From Escherichia coli (GTDB lineage Bacteria > Pseudomonadota > Gammaproteobacteria > Enterobacterales > Enterobacteriaceae): DNA of 64,000 nt. A model generated the notes under the pieces. It was not told the DNA's origin. It saw only the letters and a program-made list of their open reading frames with translations, and searched no databases. The position numbers were made by a program, and so were the translations under genes. The stretch lies in NCBI RefSeq assembly GCF_003334335.1, contig NZ_QOWQ01000005.1. One strand, written 5' to 3'. Shown one piece after another: positions 45,840 to 56,622 of the stretch (positions are counted from its first letter, which is position 1; every line of letters starts with the position of its first letter).

Positions 45840-46134
45840 CTCTAGATCTCTTTTTTGCCTGCAAGCCCGGGTAATGCGCACACAAGTTCTGCTTAATCGA
45901 TTGAAAAAACATCTTTTTTTTAAAGATGTGTTCGATGCTGTGTACCTGTGCTCACAGAGGTCTACTTTTTCGCGAAAACGTAGATCTCTACCGCCCAACG
46001 AAAAGCATGAAAGCGATCACGAATCCCATTGGGTCGTCATGTTCTGCCGATCGCATCTTCCTATCCTCGCTCCAGGCCTGCCGCATAACCAATCAGGCTT
46101 CCTACTTACAGAATTGAGAAAAGAGGATGTGGAA

Positions 46135-49455
<3,321 letters not shown>

Positions 49456-49621: not shown

Positions 49622-51337
49622 ATGAATTCGTTACAAATCTTGAGTTTTGTCGGTTTTACGCTGCTGGTGGCGGTGATCACCTGGTGGAAGGTCCGCAAAA
49701 CAGATACCGGATCGCAACAAGGCTATTTTCTTGCCGGACGTTCACTAAAAGCGCCGGTTATTGCCGCTTCGTTAATGCTAACCAACCTTTCCACGGAACA
49801 ACTGGTCGGCCTTTCCGGGCAGGCCTACAAAAGCGGCATGTCGGTGATGGGCTGGGAAGTGACTTCAGCGGTGACGCTGATCTTCCTCGCGCTAATCTTT
49901 TTACCGCGCTATCTGAAGCGCGGCATTGCCACCATCCCCGATTTTCTGGAGGAACGTTATGATAAAACGACGCGTATTATCATCGACTTCTGCTTCCTAA
50001 TTGCCACCGGCGTCTGCTTTCTGCCGATTGTTCTCTACTCCGGCGCGTTGGCGCTCAACAGCCTGTTTCACGTCGGGGAATCGCTACAGATTTCTCACGG
50101 TGCGGCTATCTGGCTACTGGTAATTTTGCTTGGTCTGGCGGGAATTTTGTATGCGGTGATCGGCGGACTGCGCGCAATGGCAGTGGCGGACTCCATCAAC
50201 GGTATTGGGCTGGTTATCGGCGGGTTGATGGTGCCGGTATTTGGCCTGATCGCGATGGGCAAGGGCAGCTTTATGCAGGGCATTGAGCAACTCACCACCG
50301 TTCACGCCGAGAAATTAAACTCAATCGGTGGCCCGACCGATCCCTTGCCGATTGGCGCGGCATTTACCGGTTTGATTCTGGTGAACACCTTTTACTGGTG
50401 TACAAATCAGGGCATCGTGCAACGCACGCTGGCGTCAAAAAGCCTGGCGGAAGGGCAAAAGGGGGCGCTGTTAACGGCGGTGCTGAAAATGCTCGACCCG
50501 CTGGTACTGGTGCTGCCAGGGTTGATTGCGTTTCATCTGTATCAGGATTTACCGAAAGCCGACATGGCCTACCCGACGCTGGTCAATAACGTTCTGCCAG
50601 TGCCAATGGTGGGTTTCTTCGGCGCGGTGTTATTTGGTGCGGTGATCAGTACCTTCAACGGCTTTCTGAATAGCGCCAGTACGTTATTCAGTATGGGTAT
50701 TTACCGTCGCATCATTAACCAGAATGCCGAGCCGCAGCAGCTGGTCACCGTCGGGCGCAAATTTGGTTTCTTTATCGCTATCGTTTCGGTGCTGGTCGCG
50801 CCGTGGATCGCCAACGCGCCGCAGGGGCTGTATAGCTGGATGAAACAGCTCAACGGCATTTACAACGTGCCGCTGGTTACCATCATCATTATGGGCTTTT
50901 TCTTCCCGCGCATCCCGGCGCTGGCGGCAAAAGTAGCGATGGGGATTGGCATAATCAGCTACATCACCATCAACTATCTGGTGAAGTTCGACTTCCATTT
51001 CCTCTATGTGCTGGCCTGTACGTTCTGCATCAACGTGGTCGTGATGCTGGTGATCGGTTTTATCAAACCGCGCGCCACGCCGTTCACCTTCAAAGATGCG
51101 TTTGCGGTGGACATGAAACCGTGGAAAAACGTCAAGATCGCGTCAATTGGCATCCTGTTCGCGATGATTGGCGTCTATGCCGGGCTGGCTGAATTCGGCG
51201 GCTACGGTACGCGCTGGTTAGCGATGATCAGTTATTTCATTGCCGCCGTAGTGATTGTCTACCTGATTTTTGACAGCTGGCGGCATCGTCACGACCCAGC
51301 CGTAACCTTTACTCCCGACGGGAAGGATAGCCTATGA
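49622..51337 (+). CDS. yidK: Sodium:solute symporter (SSS family) YidK (571 aa)
   Basis: Polytopic SSS/SGLT-like transporter; stop overlaps yidJ start. Confidence 0.88.
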   Translation: MNSLQILSFVGFTLLVAVITWWKVRKTDTGSQQGYFLAGRSLKAPVIAASLMLTNLSTEQLVGLSGQAYKSGMSVMGWEVTSAVTLIFLALIFLPRYLKRGIATIPDFLEERYDKTTRIIIDFCFLIATGVCFLPIVLYSGALALNSLFHVGESLQISHGAAIWLLVILLGLAGILYAVIGGLRAMAVADSINGIGLVIGGLMVPVFGLIAMGKGSFMQGIEQLTTVHAEKLNSIGGPTDPLPIGAAFTGLILVNTFYWCTNQGIVQRTLASKSLAEGQKGALLTAVLKMLDPLVLVLPGLIAFHLYQDLPKADMAYPTLVNNVLPVPMVGFFGAVLFGAVISTFNGFLNSASTLFSMGIYRRIINQNAEPQQLVTVGRKFGFFIAIVSVLVAPWIANAPQGLYSWMKQLNGIYNVPLVTIIIMGFFFPRIPALAAKVAMGIGIISYITINYLVKFDFHFLYVLACTFCINVVVMLVIGFIKPRATPFTFKDAFAVDMKPWKNVKIASIGILFAMIGVYAGLAEFGGYGTRWLAMISYFIAAVVIVYLIFDSWRHRHDPAVTFTPDGKDSL

Positions 51338-52827
51338 AACGCCCCAATTTTCTGTTCGTCATGACCGATACCCAGGCCACCAATATGGTCGGTTGCTATA
51401 GCGGTAAACCGCTGAATACGCAAAATATTGATAGTCTGGCGGCGGAAGGTATTCGCTTTAATTCCGCCTACACCTGTTCACCGGTTTGTACGCCTGCACG
51501 GGCCGGACTATTTACCGGTATCTACGCTAACCAGTCCGGCCCGTGGACCAACAACGTCGCGCCAGGCAAAAACATCTCCACTATGGGGCGCTACTTTAAG
51601 GATGCCGGCTATCACACCTGTTACATCGGCAAATGGCATCTCGACGGTCATGACTATTTCGGCACTGGCGAGTGTCCGCCGGAGTGGGACGCTGATTACT
51701 GGTTCGATGGGGCGAACTATCTTAGCGAACTGACGGAAAAAGAGATTAGCCTGTGGCGCAATGGCCTAAACAGCGTCGAAGATTTACAGGCGAACCATAT
51801 CGACGAAACCTTCACCTGGGCGCATCGTATCAGCAATCGGGCGGTGGATTTTCTGCAACAGCCTGCGCGCGCAGACGAGCCTTTCCTGATGGTGGTTTCG
51901 TATGATGAGCCGCATCACCCGTTCACCTGTCCGGTGGAGTATTTAGAGAAATACGCTGATTTTTACTACGAGCTGGGCGAGAAAGCACAGGATGACCTGG
52001 CTAACAAACCGGAACATCACCGCTTATGGGCGCAGGCGATGCCATCGCCAGTCGGTGATGACGGGCTTTATCACCATCCGCTCTATTTTGCCTGTAATGA
52101 CTTTGTTGATGACCAAATCGGACGGGTCATCAATGCCTTAACGCCAGAGCAACGTGAAAATACGTGGGTTATTTATACCTCCGATCACGGCGAAATGATG
52201 GGCGCACATAAGCTGATCAGTAAAGGGGCGGCGATGTATGACGACATCACCCGCATTCCGCTGATCATCCGTTCGCCGCAAGGGGAGCGGCGACAGGTCG
52301 ATACGCCAGTCAGTCATATCGATTTACTGCCGACAATGATGGCGCTGGCAGATATTGAAAAACCAGAGATTCTGCCGGGGGAAAATATCCTTGCCGTGAA
52401 AGAGCCACGCGGCGTGATGGTGGAATTTAACCGCTACGAGATTGAGCATGACAGCTTTGGCGGTTTTATTCCGGTGCGTTGCTGGGTGACGGATGACTTT
52501 AAACTGGTACTCAACCTCTTCACCAGTGATGAACTTTACGATCGCCGTAATGACCCAAATGAAATGCATAACCTGATCGATGATATCCGTTTTGCAGACG
52601 TTCGCAGCAAAATGCATGACGCCTTATTGGATTACATGGACAAAATTCGCGATCCGTTCCGCAGTTACCAATGGAGTCTGCGTCCGTGGCGTAAAGATGC
52701 ACGGCCGCGCTGGATGGGGGCGTTTCGTCCACGTCCACAAGATGGCTATTCGCCAGTTGTACGCGACTATGACACCGGCCTACCGACACAAGGGGTGAAG
52801 GTGGAGGAGAAAAAACAGAAGTTCTGA
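51334..52827 (+). CDS. yidJ: Cys-type sulfatase YidJ (497 aa)
   Basis: Sulfatase signature CTPARAGLFTG (C-x-P-x-R) near N-terminus, metal-binding DTQ near start. Confidence 0.9.
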   Translation: MKRPNFLFVMTDTQATNMVGCYSGKPLNTQNIDSLAAEGIRFNSAYTCSPVCTPARAGLFTGIYANQSGPWTNNVAPGKNISTMGRYFKDAGYHTCYIGKWHLDGHDYFGTGECPPEWDADYWFDGANYLSELTEKEISLWRNGLNSVEDLQANHIDETFTWAHRISNRAVDFLQQPARADEPFLMVVSYDEPHHPFTCPVEYLEKYADFYYELGEKAQDDLANKPEHHRLWAQAMPSPVGDDGLYHHPLYFACNDFVDDQIGRVINALTPEQRENTWVIYTSDHGEMMGAHKLISKGAAMYDDITRIPLIIRSPQGERRQVDTPVSHIDLLPTMMALADIEKPEILPGENILAVKEPRGVMVEFNRYEIEHDSFGGFIPVRCWVTDDFKLVLNLFTSDELYDRRNDPNEMHNLIDDIRFADVRSKMHDALLDYMDKIRDPFRSYQWSLRPWRKDARPRWMGAFRPRPQDGYSPVVRDYDTGLPTQGVKVEEKKQKF

Positions 52828-52873
52828 CGATAATGCCCGCTGATGATCACCCGGCGGGCATTATTCAGGCTGC

Positions 52874-53323
52874 TTAAACCAGTGAACCGCCGGTCAGGAA
52901 GGAAAAGATAAGGAATATCAGCAAAATGCTGCACACGATGCCGATACCAAAAAGCAAGGTATGGAAAGCCAGCGTCCCGCCGCCAAAAACCAGCGCGCCG
53001 CGAATGCCCCAGCGATTTTCCTTACGCATACCGCCAATAAATGCGCAAAGTAGCGCAGCAATGGCCAGTGCGATACCGCTTTGATTGAGGATTTTATCGA
53101 CATCTACGTCCTCTTTTTTCTCCACGGTGGTAATTTTTTCGCCTTTTATTCCGGCGAGAAGACCTCTTTTAATTTCAGCCGTTTTGTCCGCCACGATGCT
53201 TTCAAACGTTGGCGGTGGTGCGGAGAAAGGGCCGAATGAAAAGTGGATAATCCCCATCATTAAAGCGATGGCACCGAACAGCATGCCCAATGAACTGATT
53301 TTATTTTGAGCTATGATACCCAT
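52874..53323 (-). CDS. yidI: Small inner-membrane protein YidI (149 aa)
   Basis: Trimmed to MGIIAQNKISSLGMLFGAIALMMG…; hydrophobic. Confidence 0.8.
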   Translation of the reverse strand: MGIIAQNKISSLGMLFGAIALMMGIIHFSFGPFSAPPPTFESIVADKTAEIKRGLLAGIKGEKITTVEKKEDVDVDKILNQSGIALAIAALLCAFIGGMRKENRWGIRGALVFGGGTLAFHTLLFGIGIVCSILLIFLIFSFLTGGSLV

Positions 53324-53430
53324 CTGACCTCCTTGTAGCGGATGGCAAAAGCATATCAGGAAACGGGCGGACGAAATTCTTAAAAAAACCGCTAAAGGTA
53401 GAGCGTTAGTGAAATTGCAAAGGAGCAACA

Positions 53431-53778
53431 ATGAAAATTTCCCGCCTCGGAGAAGCGCCTGATTACCGCTTCTCGCTGGCTAATGAGCGTACTTTTCTGG
53501 CGTGGATCCGTACTGCACTAGGATTTCTGGCGGCGGGGGTTGGGCTTGATCAACTTGCGCCAGATTTCGCCACGCCCGTCATTCGCGAACTGCTGGCGTT
53601 GTTGTTGTGTCTGTTTTCCGGCGGGTTAGCGATGTATGGCTACTTGCGCTGGTTACGCAATGAAAAAGCGATGCGTCTGAAAGAGGACCTGCCCTACACC
53701 AACAGCTTATTAATCATTAGCTTAATATTGATGGTCGTGGCGGTGATCGTTATGGGACTGGTGTTGTATGCCGGATAG
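53431..53778 (+). CDS. yidH: DUF202-family small membrane protein YidH (115 aa)
   Basis: ERTFLAWIRT motif typical of DUF202; overlaps yidG start by 11 nt. Confidence 0.85.
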   Translation: MKISRLGEAPDYRFSLANERTFLAWIRTALGFLAAGVGLDQLAPDFATPVIRELLALLLCLFSGGLAMYGYLRWLRNEKAMRLKEDLPYTNSLLIISLILMVVAVIVMGLVLYAG

Positions 53779-54130
53779 CCGCAAAGCCAGACGCATTGCC
53801 GACCCAGGACTGCAGCCGGAGCGCACATCACTGGCGTGGTTTCGTACCATGCTGGGCTACGGCGCGTTGATGGCGTTGGCTATCAAACACAACTGGCACC
53901 AGGCGGGCATGTTATTCTGGATTTCGATTGGCATTCTCGCCATCGTGGCGCTGATCCTCTGGCACTACACCCGTAATCGCAATTTAATGGATGTCACGAA
54001 TAGCGATTTTTCCCAATTTCACGTAGTCCGTGACAAATTTTTGATCTCCCTCGCGGTGTTATCTCTCGCAATACTGTTTGCTGTAACGCATATACATCAA
54101 CTTATCGTATTTATTGAGAGAGTCGCATGA
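53768..54130 (+). CDS. yidG: DUF202-family small membrane protein YidG (120 aa)
   Basis: ERTSLAWFRT motif, paralogous to yidH; overlaps yidF start. Confidence 0.85.
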   Translation: MPDSRKARRIADPGLQPERTSLAWFRTMLGYGALMALAIKHNWHQAGMLFWISIGILAIVALILWHYTRNRNLMDVTNSDFSQFHVVRDKFLISLAVLSLAILFAVTHIHQLIVFIERVA

Positions 54131-54624
54131 CAGGAAGTCAGGTCATTGATGCTGAAGAGGACAGGCATAAACTGGTTGTAGAGTACAAGGATGCTCTGCA
54201 ACCTGCCGATTTTTATCACAATTTCAAACAGCGGGGCATCCGCTCCGTACAGCTCATTCCCTATCTTGAATTTGATGACCGGGGCGATCTGACGGCCGCT
54301 TCGGTGACAGCAGAGCTGTGGGGGAAATTTTTAATTGCCCTGTTCGAGTGTTGGGTGCGGGCAGATATCAGTCGTATCTCGATTGAGCTTTTTGACGCCA
54401 CCTTACAAAAATGGTGTGGCAGCGAAAACCCGCAACCGCGCTGTGACTGCCAGGCGTGCGACTGGCATCGCCTGTGCCCGCACGCTCGGCAGGAGACGCC
54501 AGACAGCGTGCTTTGTGCGGGCTATCAGGCGTTTTATTCTTACTCCGCACCGCATATGCGGGTGATGCGTGATCTGATAAAGCAGCATCGTTCTCCCATG
54601 GAGCTGATGACGATGCTGCGGTGA
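54127..54624 (+). CDS. yidF: YidF, Cys-rich protein resembling the C-terminal (SPASM-like) part of an anaerobic sulfatase-maturating enzyme (165 aa)
   Basis: C-terminal cluster CDCQACDWHRLCP…CAGY; no N-terminal CxxxCxxC radical-SAM motif present. Confidence 0.8.
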   Translation: MTGSQVIDAEEDRHKLVVEYKDALQPADFYHNFKQRGIRSVQLIPYLEFDDRGDLTAASVTAELWGKFLIALFECWVRADISRISIELFDATLQKWCGSENPQPRCDCQACDWHRLCPHARQETPDSVLCAGYQAFYSYSAPHMRVMRDLIKQHRSPMELMTMLR

Positions 54625-54631
54625 CGTGCGC

Positions 54632-55816
54632 TTAAACGGGCTGCCCCTGATGCGACATCCGCGTCGCCAGCGGCAGCCAGCACAGCACGATCAACAATCC
54701 CATTAAGGTCATCAACAACCCCAGGCTGCCCTGACCGGTTTGCGGCAACATCGCAGAGAGCGACGCCAGCACGCCGGAACCAATGTTTTGCAGACCGCCG
54801 ACCAGCGCGCCAGCCGTGCCCGCCAGGAAGGGGAACGGCTCCATCGCGCCGCTGGTCGCCAGCGGAAACAGCATCCCGGCACCGAAAAAGAACAGCGCGG
54901 CGGGAACGAGCAGCGTCCAGACATTCATCACGCCAAACCAGTCGGGGATCCACATCAGCAAGCCAGCCAGCAGGCAGCAGATAACCGACTGCCACATTAA
55001 CGTGGAGAAGCGTTTATTGGGACGTCCGGCAAACCATGCGCCAAAAAACGCTGCCGGAATCGGCAGAATAAACAAAATACTGACCGTCATACTGCTCAGC
55101 CCTAACACCGCGCCCATCAGCACGCCGGAGCAGGCTTCAAAGGCGGCAATCCCGGCCAGACCGCCAATCAGCATCAGCAAATAACAGTTAAAACCGCTGT
55201 TACCGAAAAGCGTTTTATAACTGGTAAGCAGGCGCGTGCGCGGTGCATCGACCGGACGCGTTTCCGGCATCCAGCGGGCCATACTGAAGGTCACACCAGC
55301 ACAAAGAACCAACAAAAAGAGATAACAGGCGCGCCAGTTCCACATCGTATCCAGCAGACCGCCGATTAGCGGTGCGAGCAACGGACTGACGAGAATCCCC
55401 ATGTTTAACAGGCTGTTAGCATGGCGCAACTGTGTCCGTTCATATAAATCTCGCGGTAAAGTACGCGCCATTACGCCGCCAACGCCGGTGCCCATCCCCT
55501 GCATCGCGCTGGCGGCAATCAACACCGTCAAACTGGAGGTCGTGACCGCGACCAGCGTTGCCAGCATAAAAATGGACATTCCGACGAGGATCACCGGTCG
55601 GCGGCCCACGCGGTCGGAAATCGGGCCATAAAACAGCTGTGAGACACCGTAAGTCAGCAGATAAGCGCCCATTACGCTCTGCACCGCCCCTTCACGGACG
55701 TTGAGATCGCGCGCCATATCGGCAATAGCTGGAATATAAATGGTTTGCGCCATCTGACCGACGGCCACGAGTAATACCAACATCAATAACAAATTGACGT
55801 TTCTTTGCCTTTTCAT
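54632..55816 (-). CDS. emrD: MFS multidrug efflux pump EmrD (394 aa)
   Basis: Trimmed to MKRQRNVNLLLMLVLLVAVGQMAQTIYIPAI…; 12-TM MFS. Confidence 0.92.
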   Translation of the reverse strand: MKRQRNVNLLLMLVLLVAVGQMAQTIYIPAIADMARDLNVREGAVQSVMGAYLLTYGVSQLFYGPISDRVGRRPVILVGMSIFMLATLVAVTTSSLTVLIAASAMQGMGTGVGGVMARTLPRDLYERTQLRHANSLLNMGILVSPLLAPLIGGLLDTMWNWRACYLFLLVLCAGVTFSMARWMPETRPVDAPRTRLLTSYKTLFGNSGFNCYLLMLIGGLAGIAAFEACSGVLMGAVLGLSSMTVSILFILPIPAAFFGAWFAGRPNKRFSTLMWQSVICCLLAGLLMWIPDWFGVMNVWTLLVPAALFFFGAGMLFPLATSGAMEPFPFLAGTAGALVGGLQNIGSGVLASLSAMLPQTGQGSLGLLMTLMGLLIVLCWLPLATRMSHQGQPV

Positions 55817-56479: not shown

Positions 56480-56622
56480 TGCACTAAATACGTCAAAATT
56501 CGTGCCGAAATTGCGCGTTCTGCGCGGAACACGTATACTTTCAGTGTTGACATAATACAGTGTGCTTTGCGGTTACCAGCCGCAGGCGACTGACGAAACC
56601 TCGCTCCGGCGGGGTTTTTTGT
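56480..56622 (+). ncRNA. istR: IstR antitoxin sRNA (IstR-2 about 140 nt; IstR-1 about 75 nt from about 56546; shared terminator)
   Basis: Candidate promoters (TTGGAC-18-GATACT; tatact at 56534-56539), 21-nt stretch 56546-56566 nearly identical to 56288-56308 in the tisAB leader, terminator gaaacctcgctccggcggggtttttt; 5' ends approximate. Confidence 0.75.

Follow-up and report, generated by a model that had tools for sequence, protein, structure and literature searches.

YidF of Escherichia coli, an in-frame deletion derivative of a sulfatase-maturating enzyme, in a yid gene cluster with a Cys-type sulfatase, an importer and two DUF202 proteins

The yidL-yidF cluster of Escherichia coli was analysed in a window of 64,000 nucleotides (the whole stretch of DNA considered, from contig NZ_QOWQ01000005.1), with emphasis on yidF, a short gene resembling those of anaerobic sulfatase-maturating enzymes. 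The cluster comprises the divergent genes yidL and yidK, the sulfatase gene yidJ and the string yidH-yidG-yidF (Table 1). The yidK stop and the yidJ start share four bases (ATGA), yidH and yidG overlap by 11 bases and yidG and yidF again by four (ATGA), yidF being the last gene of the overlapping string. The original prediction had placed yidF close to yidK-yidJ, which stands as far as the locus is concerned; overlooked were yidI, which on the opposite strand parts the string from yidJ, and the pair of DUF202 genes with which yidF is overlapped. The region is most probably a degenerate five-gene module for a sulfated substrate, the maturase core having been lost in Escherichia, with YidF probably left in a non-catalytic role and YidJ matured elsewhere.

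Table 1. Genes and sequence features of the yid cluster, in positions of the window
Feature	Position	Strand	Description
yidL	48562..49455	-	297 aa; AraC-family regulator, divergent from yidK (NCBIfam AraC matches and K-12 annotation)
yidK	49622..51337	+	571 aa; solute:sodium symporter (SSS)
yidJ	51334..52827	+	497 aa; leaderless Cys-type S1 sulfatase (Pfam and motif)
YidJ formylglycine signature C52-T-P-A-R-A-G-L-F-T-G	51487..51519	+	regular expression [CS]xPxRx4TG
yidI	52874..53323	-	149 aa; small inner-membrane protein gene, a variable insert between yidJ and yidH
yidH	53431..53778	+	115 aa; DUF202, three-helix membrane protein
yidG	53768..54130	+	120 aa; second DUF202 membrane protein
yidF	54127..54624	+	165 aa; in-frame deletion derivative of anaerobic sulfatase-maturating enzyme
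YidF ancestral N-terminus MTGSQVIDA	54127..54153	+	alignment with full-length orthologues starting MTGCQVMAKPASSRCNLxCRYC; deletion 1 directly after
YidF residues 14-96, last radical-SAM half-barrel strands and helices	54166..54414	+	phmmer to 4k36/4k37 (anSMEcpe 175-246); pLDDT 86-96
YidF deletion 2 site	54415..54447	+	about 59 ancestral residues gone, including Aux I equivalents Cys255, Cys261 and Cys276 and the SPASM beta-hairpin
YidF distal SPASM cysteines C108, C111, C117, C130	54448..54516	+	equivalents of anSMEcpe Aux II ligands C317, C320, C326, C348
YidF C-terminal tail AGYQAFYSYSAPHMRVMRDLIKQHRSPMELMTMLR	54517..54621	+	best-conserved part of long and short forms; near-invariant columns; confident helices in the model

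The homology of YidF is to anaerobic sulfatase-maturating enzymes only, and NCBIfam profiles, PDB sequences and the predicted fold agree in this. Against TIGR03942 the protein scored 75.1 bits (cut-off 349.45), with a match limited to profile positions of about 160-245 and the C-terminus; the two full-length orthologues scored reached 483.9 and 469.4 bits, above the cut-off. Pfam gave no significant match on YidF, with neither Radical_SAM nor SPASM detected, and on the full-length orthologue of Citrobacter werkmanii recognized Radical_SAM at residues 12-173 and SPASM at residues 254-312. In the phmmer alignment with the structurally solved enzyme anSMEcpe, YidF residues 27-95 pair with residues 175-246 and residues 105-152 with residues 314-370. 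The AlphaFold2 model of YidF is compact and confident (mean predicted local distance difference test, pLDDT, 81.5; predicted template modelling score, pTM, 0.80), only the Cys loops being uncertain (pLDDT below 50 at residues 102-106), and the only significant PDB folds retrieved with it by Foldseek were those of anSMEcpe (4k36-4k39; E 2e-6).

Compared with the C. werkmanii protein, Escherichia YidF misses residues of about 10-151 and 244-302, both in frame. With the first deletion go the greater part of the barrel, GGEP as the SAM-binding motif and the ligands of the radical-SAM (S-adenosylmethionine) cluster, and the second takes the equivalents of C255, C261 and C276 together with the SPASM hairpin. 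In anSMEcpe these three and C330 are the ligands of the first auxiliary cluster (Aux I), those of the second (Aux II) being C317, C320, C326 and C348 (PMC5715301). YidF retains 4/4 of the Aux II and 0/4 of the Aux I ligands, C330 being likewise gone. Its seven cysteines are at positions 75, 97, 106, 108, 111, 117 and 130, and C108, C111 and C130 are invariant across 39 long and short homologues. A C-x3-C-x2-C motif was sought anywhere in YidF and is absent; full-length orthologues bear it along with GGEP and C-x2-C-x5-C-x3-C, and in 19 of them it reads CNLxCRYC. The long form is the ancestral one, because AslB, YdeM, anSMEcpe and all other members of the family still have the blocks that YidF lost.

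The original prediction, which had noted that the 165-aa YidF lacks the radical-SAM core and its CxxxCxxC motif, was thus borne out, and the profile search that it proposed aligned YidF to TIGR03942 and to no unrelated family. Its comparison of the Cys-rich C-terminus to SPASM holds for the Aux II cysteines, that is for the distal half only; the Pfam SPASM domain was not detected and the second internal deletion had gone unnoticed. Because the core and the Aux I parts are deleted, YidF should be unable to bind SAM, to do radical chemistry or to mature YidJ, and formylglycine-forming activity is predicted to be absent from the E. coli protein. Judged from its sequence, it is a homologue by descent that fails every defining feature of the maturase family. 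PGAP names the gene 'radical SAM protein' and the K-12 RefSeq record 'uncharacterized protein YidF'.

A split enzyme, with a separate gene for the N-terminal half, was considered and rejected, none being found at the locus. An apparent split of the maturase gene in Atlantibacter was likewise discarded as the product of an 'NN' assembly gap. In this case a 204-aa SPASM protein among the relatives of YidF led to a genome bin contig (L007) with yidL, yidK, yidJ, yidH, yidG and the maturase gene; with the gap repaired, the latter encodes 373 aa, starting with MTGCHVMAKPASSRCNLRCRYC and ending in …SAPHMRVMRDLIAQHRSPMELMTML, nearly the same ends as those of E. coli YidF.

The orthologous loci were scanned with one genome per species and comprise 54 loci, all beside emrD/ilvB, retrieved through the conserved C-terminal peptide of YidF, which biases the set to alleles with an intact tail. 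Full-length yidF (369-374 aa) was identified in Atlantibacter, Kluyvera cryocrescens, Yokenella, Kosakonia, Leclercia sp. 29361, an Enterobacter sp. and, within Citrobacter, in werkmanii, braakii, sedlakii, amalonaticus, youngae ATCC 29220 and koseri. In Atlantibacter, Kluyvera and several Citrobacter species the complete set yidL-yidK-yidJ-yidH-yidG plus full-length maturase occupies the same chromosomal place. YidF had been proposed to be the remnant of a dedicated maturase, and this maturase is found in the orthologous position downstream of yidK-yidJ; the remnant is however not a decaying pseudogene.

Intact short yidF (165-178 codons) spans eight genera or more. Within Escherichia it was identified in E. 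coli, E. whittamii and the cryptic clades, and as a protein in E. albertii; the other carriers are the Citrobacter freundii group, Salmonella enterica subsp. arizonae and diarizonae, Klebsiella indica, K. pneumoniae ATCC 13883, Raoultella terrigena, Leclercia adecarboxylata, Silvania and Superficieibacter. All 32 alleles of this length are open, and 5421 of the 5426 complete E. coli genomes carry the short one. Every shortened allele shares the deletion of about 246-297, the extent of the N-terminal core loss being variable and always in frame: Δ25-150 (192 aa, C-x3-C-x2-C kept), Δ23-113 (220 aa), Δ10-61 plus Δ122-135 (249 aa), Δ10-151 and Δ8-154. A recombination hot spot was rejected as the origin of the shared deletion, since in 12 full-length genes no conserved direct repeats stand at its boundaries; for this reason a single ancestral event is favoured, and the deletion more likely arose once. 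In a neighbour-joining tree of the shared region some short alleles group with long alleles of the same genus, and the tree is ambiguous on how often this deletion arose.

The cassette yidLKJ was lost repeatedly. A 3' stub of yidJ is left upstream of yidH in an Enterobacter sp. (L010); in E. coli P276M (L002 7202-8957) yidL-yidK-yidJ-yidI is replaced by a degraded IS200/IS605 transposase and a TnpB (InsQ) pseudogene, with a 24-codon yidL stub retained; and in the type strain of E. albertii yidK-yidJ is gone, with a yidL remnant left. The median ratio of nonsynonymous to synonymous substitution (dN/dS) of full-length yidF is 0.08 with yidJ upstream and 0.16 where yidJ was lost. Among the latter, GGEP is lost in K. 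arachidis and K. pseudosacchari, C-x3-C-x2-C in RIT691, and some genes have small in-frame SPASM deletions. A graded series is thus found at one chromosomal position: intact enzyme, relaxed enzyme after loss of the partner, in-frame core deletions, conserved mini-protein and complete loss. About 4 kb upstream of yidH, Leclercia sp. 29361 (L017 2488-3537) and Silvania confinis (L046 2524-3510) have a 23%-identical sulfatase-like gene in opposite orientation, which might be an alternative client of the maturase.

The importer of the cluster, YidK, belongs to the SSS family, with 856.6 bits on NF007790 (cut-off 401) and 417.1 on TIGR00813 (cut-off 184), both from NCBIfam. Its closest solved structures are those of Na+/galactose and Na+/glucose transporters: vSGLT (2xq2/3dh4, E 1e-53), SGLT1 (6e-46) and also SGLT2. 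YidJ contains Pfam Sulfatase (PF00884) at residues 4-341 (E 1.3e-72) and SGSH_C at residues 300-434, and CTPARAGLFTG from Cys52 fits C-x-P-x-R-x4-T-G with Cys in the first position. Both the intact Cys-type signature and the coupling of yidJ to a symporter gene had been put forward in the original prediction and were found as described. The protein begins straight with the sulfatase N-terminal block (MKRPNFLFVMTDTQ), and since this block is itself the N-terminus, YidJ has no signal peptide and is taken to be cytoplasmic. It scored below the cut-off of every NCBIfam sulfatase equivalog (217 against 481 and 201 against 433 bits), so that its substrate is not assignable. Family membership would point to substrate uptake and desulfation by the YidK/YidJ pair. 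Within Escherichia dN/dS is 0.01-0.07 for yidK and 0.03-0.05 for yidJ; YidJ is selectively maintained under strong purifying selection, and yidKJ is present in 5108 of the 5426 complete genomes. A literature search found no functional description of yidF/yidJ or yidH/yidG; one genomics paper has yidJ among the genes enriched in gut isolates.

In the intact module the divergent AraC-type yidL would act as regulator, YidK would bring in a sulfated compound, most probably a sugar bearing sulfate, and cytoplasmic YidJ would strip the sulfate from it. The radical-SAM/SPASM maturase encoded at the operon end would oxidise Cys52 of YidJ to formylglycine. A guess for YidH/YidG, prompted by their homology to the channel-forming helices of the vacuolar transporter chaperone (VTC), is that they might release the anion (sulfate) made in the cytoplasm, which is speculation. 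In Escherichia, YidJ has to be matured elsewhere if it is under selection while YidF is catalytically dead, as the original prediction had suggested; the low dN/dS of yidJ and the encoding of AslB and YdeM elsewhere in K-12 are consistent with this. The formylglycine of YidJ may come from AslB or YdeM (anaerobically) or from a suspected further Cys-type system. Both aslB and ydeM are listed in the literature as genes of putative E. coli maturases, and a third formylglycine system, unidentified, is suspected (PMC8379841). The short YidF keeps the half-barrel, the Aux II cysteines and the C-terminal helix, and would probably have a non-catalytic role, possibly with one Fe-S cluster.

The first alternative is that YidF, long and short, is a partner of a YidH-YidG membrane complex and not of the sulfatase, yidLKJ being an often-lost neighbouring cassette. 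In accordance with it, the start of yidF invariably overlaps the end of the preceding yidG, whether yidLKJ is there or not; Kosakonia, Yokenella, Leclercia sp. 29361 and others have full-length forms but no yidJ; and in E. coli yidHGF is commoner than yidKJ (5421 against 5108 genomes). The full-length protein is, however, a sulfatase maturase by a curated equivalog model, and where yidJ is absent its constraint is halved and its motifs decay. The DUF202 pair also exists without yidF, and a third such pair was found in an unrelated context. A crude structure prediction for YidH, YidG and YidF joined by linkers showed no confident complex (pTM 0.40, mean pLDDT 60), a result of little weight. Distant taxa argue against this alternative as well, since there too a sulfatase and an SSS importer join DUF202 and radical-SAM genes. 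Locus L069 has the order AraC-SSF-sulfatase-DUF202-DUF202, with a YidH homologue 54% identical and a sulfatase 73% identical to YidJ with an identical Cys motif; its divergent AraC gene is also found with the module in Atlantibacter, Citrobacter and Kluyvera. Loci L071/L072 (41% GC, GCA_917066285.1) comprise SSF, a leaderless Cys-type sulfatase, a full radical-SAM/SPASM maturase and a single DUF202 gene (YidH homologue, 41%), recurring together at 27-40% identity. This alternative is considered unlikely.

As to the DUF202 proteins themselves, PF02656 was found on YidH homologues 98-100% identical and on yidH/yidG orthologues at related loci, and the motif ERTxLAWxRT is common to YidH and YidG. 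Within Escherichia their dN/dS is 0-0.07 (yidH) and 0-0.15 (yidG). A screen for D-alanine export picked up YidH, and over-expression left intracellular D-alanine unlowered, so the role was not confirmed (PMC10299036). In L071 (603-5384) the gene order of the module differs and it adjoins an IS66 transposase, and a mobile importer/sulfatase/maturase/DUF202 module is suggested.

The second alternative is that yidF of E. coli is no more than the remnant of a pseudogene without function, its frame open by chance or through linkage to yidH-yidG. YidF has no catalytic element left, and between E. coli and Citrobacter it diverged faster than its neighbours (identity 50%, against 97% for YidH and 83% for YidG). 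The constraint on the short form is about twice as relaxed as on the full-length one. The gene is wholly lost, with yidH-yidG kept, in Enterobacter kobei (L062 5001-5700) and one Salmonella enterica (L063 5001-5688), where the convergent neighbour starts 8-28 bp past yidG, and in E. albertii NBRC 107761 it lies in two frames (L058 2784-4745), by frameshift or sequencing error; in the database E. albertii also has an intact protein of 165 aa. Some lineages can thus dispense with any residual function. The selection data nevertheless speak against a pseudogene. In pairwise Nei-Gojobori comparisons, whose pairs are non-independent and in part near saturation, short yidF has a dN/dS of 0.09-0.34 in every tested clade and neutrality is rejected (P 1e-4 to 4e-15): within Escherichia the values are 0.09-0.30 (K-12 against E. 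whittamii 0.12, P(neutral) = 5e-14), and rejection extends to the comparisons in Citrobacter, Salmonella, Silvania, Leclercia, Klebsiella/Raoultella and Superficieibacter. By region, dN/dS is about 0.22 in the half-barrel (residues 14-96), 0.27 in the Cys region (97-130; 0.17-0.66 in single pairs) and 0.08 in the tail (131-165; range 0.03-0.1). The constraint on the tail acts on the protein, because its dS is normal; a DNA-level cause of the conserved 3' end, such as an antisense element or the terminator of the neighbour, was rejected on the same ground and because the convergent neighbour differs among genera. The open alleles in at least eight genera, the later erosions all in frame, the near-universal presence in E. 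coli and the confident fold prediction argue likewise. A mere pseudogene is therefore quite improbable, and short YidF is an old protein under purifying selection. The comparison of orthologous loci proposed in the original prediction thus found a short yidF conserved under selection, but one with a longer ancestor, so that the remnant reading is not refuted by it.

The last alternative, that short YidF still aids formylglycine formation, as part of the third Cys-type system suspected for E. coli (PMC8379841) or in trans with AslB/YdeM, would fit the finding that Escherichia, S. arizonae and Superficieibacter maintain it beside a Cys-type sulfatase, and the four retained cysteines that bind [4Fe-4S] in anSMEcpe, but is highly improbable with no SAM site, no radical-SAM cluster, no Aux I ligand cysteines and no gene for the missing half at the locus, and with the short form equally conserved in many genomes lacking yidJ.

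The degenerate sulfated-substrate module remains the preferred explanation, and several results weigh against parts of it. Many genera that lost yidLKJ still have the string yidH-yidG-yidF, with yidF long or short, hence the maturase is not strictly tied to YidJ. In the short form the Cys region is the least constrained part, and the Aux II ligand C117 is lost in C. freundii-type alleles. To these are added the losses and the frameshift of yidF, the absence of a confident YidH-YidG-YidF assembly, the non-independent pairs behind the selection values and the retrieval of loci by their tail. A more specific version of the explanation, in which short YidF is a maintained dead enzyme with one [4Fe-4S] at Aux II and a non-catalytic job, for example redox-sensitive control of a YidH-YidG sulfate-release complex, is tentative and rather doubtful. 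If true, the repeated in-frame erosion of the core in enterobacterial lineages would reflect selection for the C-terminal module alone.

The surroundings of the cluster are those of K-12: the window corresponds to the reverse strand of MG1655, with 100% identity over yidF-yidI and two mismatches in the following 9.5 kb. One of these, at window position 50248, is a single base in the third position of yidK codon 209. The other (47239, record 3862499) hits the annotated stop codon of glvC in its first base, and the EIIC and EIIB parts of a phosphotransferase system (glvC, glvB) are here one continuous open reading frame (45874-47751) against two genes in MG1655. The 212-aa reading frame at 47751-48389 is a shortened 6-phospho-alpha-glucosidase gene, glvG, annotated as a K-12 pseudogene, which in other E. 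coli strains and Klebsiella has a 440-aa gene in its position; it is a second shortened gene, directly adjoining the cluster.

The insert yidI has no family match in NCBIfam and is missing from some 1700 complete E. coli genomes, Nissle 1917 (B2) and ST131 among them, and occurs sporadically in Citrobacter and Salmonella arizonae; it is a presence/absence polymorphism outside the conserved module. In Nissle 1917 (L001 8952-9012) yidJ and yidH share a strand with only 59 bp between them, an arrangement that resembles an original, uninterrupted yidKJHGF operon. On the other side, yidF is followed by the convergent emrD, and the two stop codons are 7 bases apart (window 54624-54632), so that transcription of either gene has to end within its neighbour; a convincing intrinsic terminator was not found. 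A promoter and terminator scan and an Rfam search of 48-57 kb gave nothing useful inside the cluster. The only element found, outside it, was the small RNA istR (RF01400, 150 bits) at 56491-56620 between emrD and ilvB, where K-12 annotates the toxin gene tisB.

E. coli is the standard host for sulfatase expression, and its formylglycine route for Cys-type sulfatases is still unsettled. YidF, the sole other maturase-like gene product of K-12, can be ruled out as a conventional maturase, and intact orthologues such as those of C. werkmanii and Atlantibacter are closely matched natural tools for YidJ maturation and activity. The placing of YidH/YidG in a module with an importer, a cytoplasmic sulfatase and a maturase gives a testable context for DUF202. 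The genes and their family resemblance are already in the annotation; the anatomy of the two deletions, the intact orthologues in the same chromosomal place, the selection on the stump and the link of DUF202 to a sulfatase module are, as far as the literature was searched, not described in it. Current understanding is not overturned, and the annotation of four K-12 y-genes is refined.

Among known systems, YidJ shares with the S1 carbohydrate and choline sulfatases the Sulfatase and SGSH_C domains and the Cys-type signature. Its best PDB relatives are 9ihk (S1_30), 6pt4 (an exo-2S-iota-carrageenan sulfatase), 7oz8 (deposited as choline-sulfatase) and 5g2v (a GlcNAc-6-sulfatase); the exported sulfatases of Bacteroides differ from YidJ, which is cytoplasmic and coupled to an importer. 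For the DUF202 proteins the comparison is with Vtc1 of VTC (PDB 7ytj, 8i6v, 9umg), to which residues 14-109 of YidH, the whole three-helix domain, align weakly (E 0.0025-0.005), both being DUF202. In VTC fifteen helices of this type make a channel for an anionic polymer, polyphosphate (PMC9911596), whereas the bacterial YidH and YidG are without SPX or polymerase domains.

YidF shares descent with anSMEcpe and the TIGR03942 family, but the Aux I ligands, the hairpin, C-x3-C-x2-C, GGEP and the larger part of the barrel are gone. Its orthologues in Citrobacter, Atlantibacter, Kluyvera and Kosakonia belong to the family in full. The nearest systems in the same organism are the two other putative maturases of K-12, AslB by the sulfatase gene aslA and YdeM by ydeN, a maturase-beside-sulfatase layout as at the yid locus. 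No DUF202 gene or SSS importer is listed alongside aslB or ydeM, unlike at the yid locus, and AslA and YdeN presumably carry export signals whereas YidJ is leaderless. AslB (411 aa) and YdeM (385 aa) are paralogues, with identities of 45.5% and 43.5% to full-length C. werkmanii YidF over the whole length, and both are intact, unlike YidF of E. coli.

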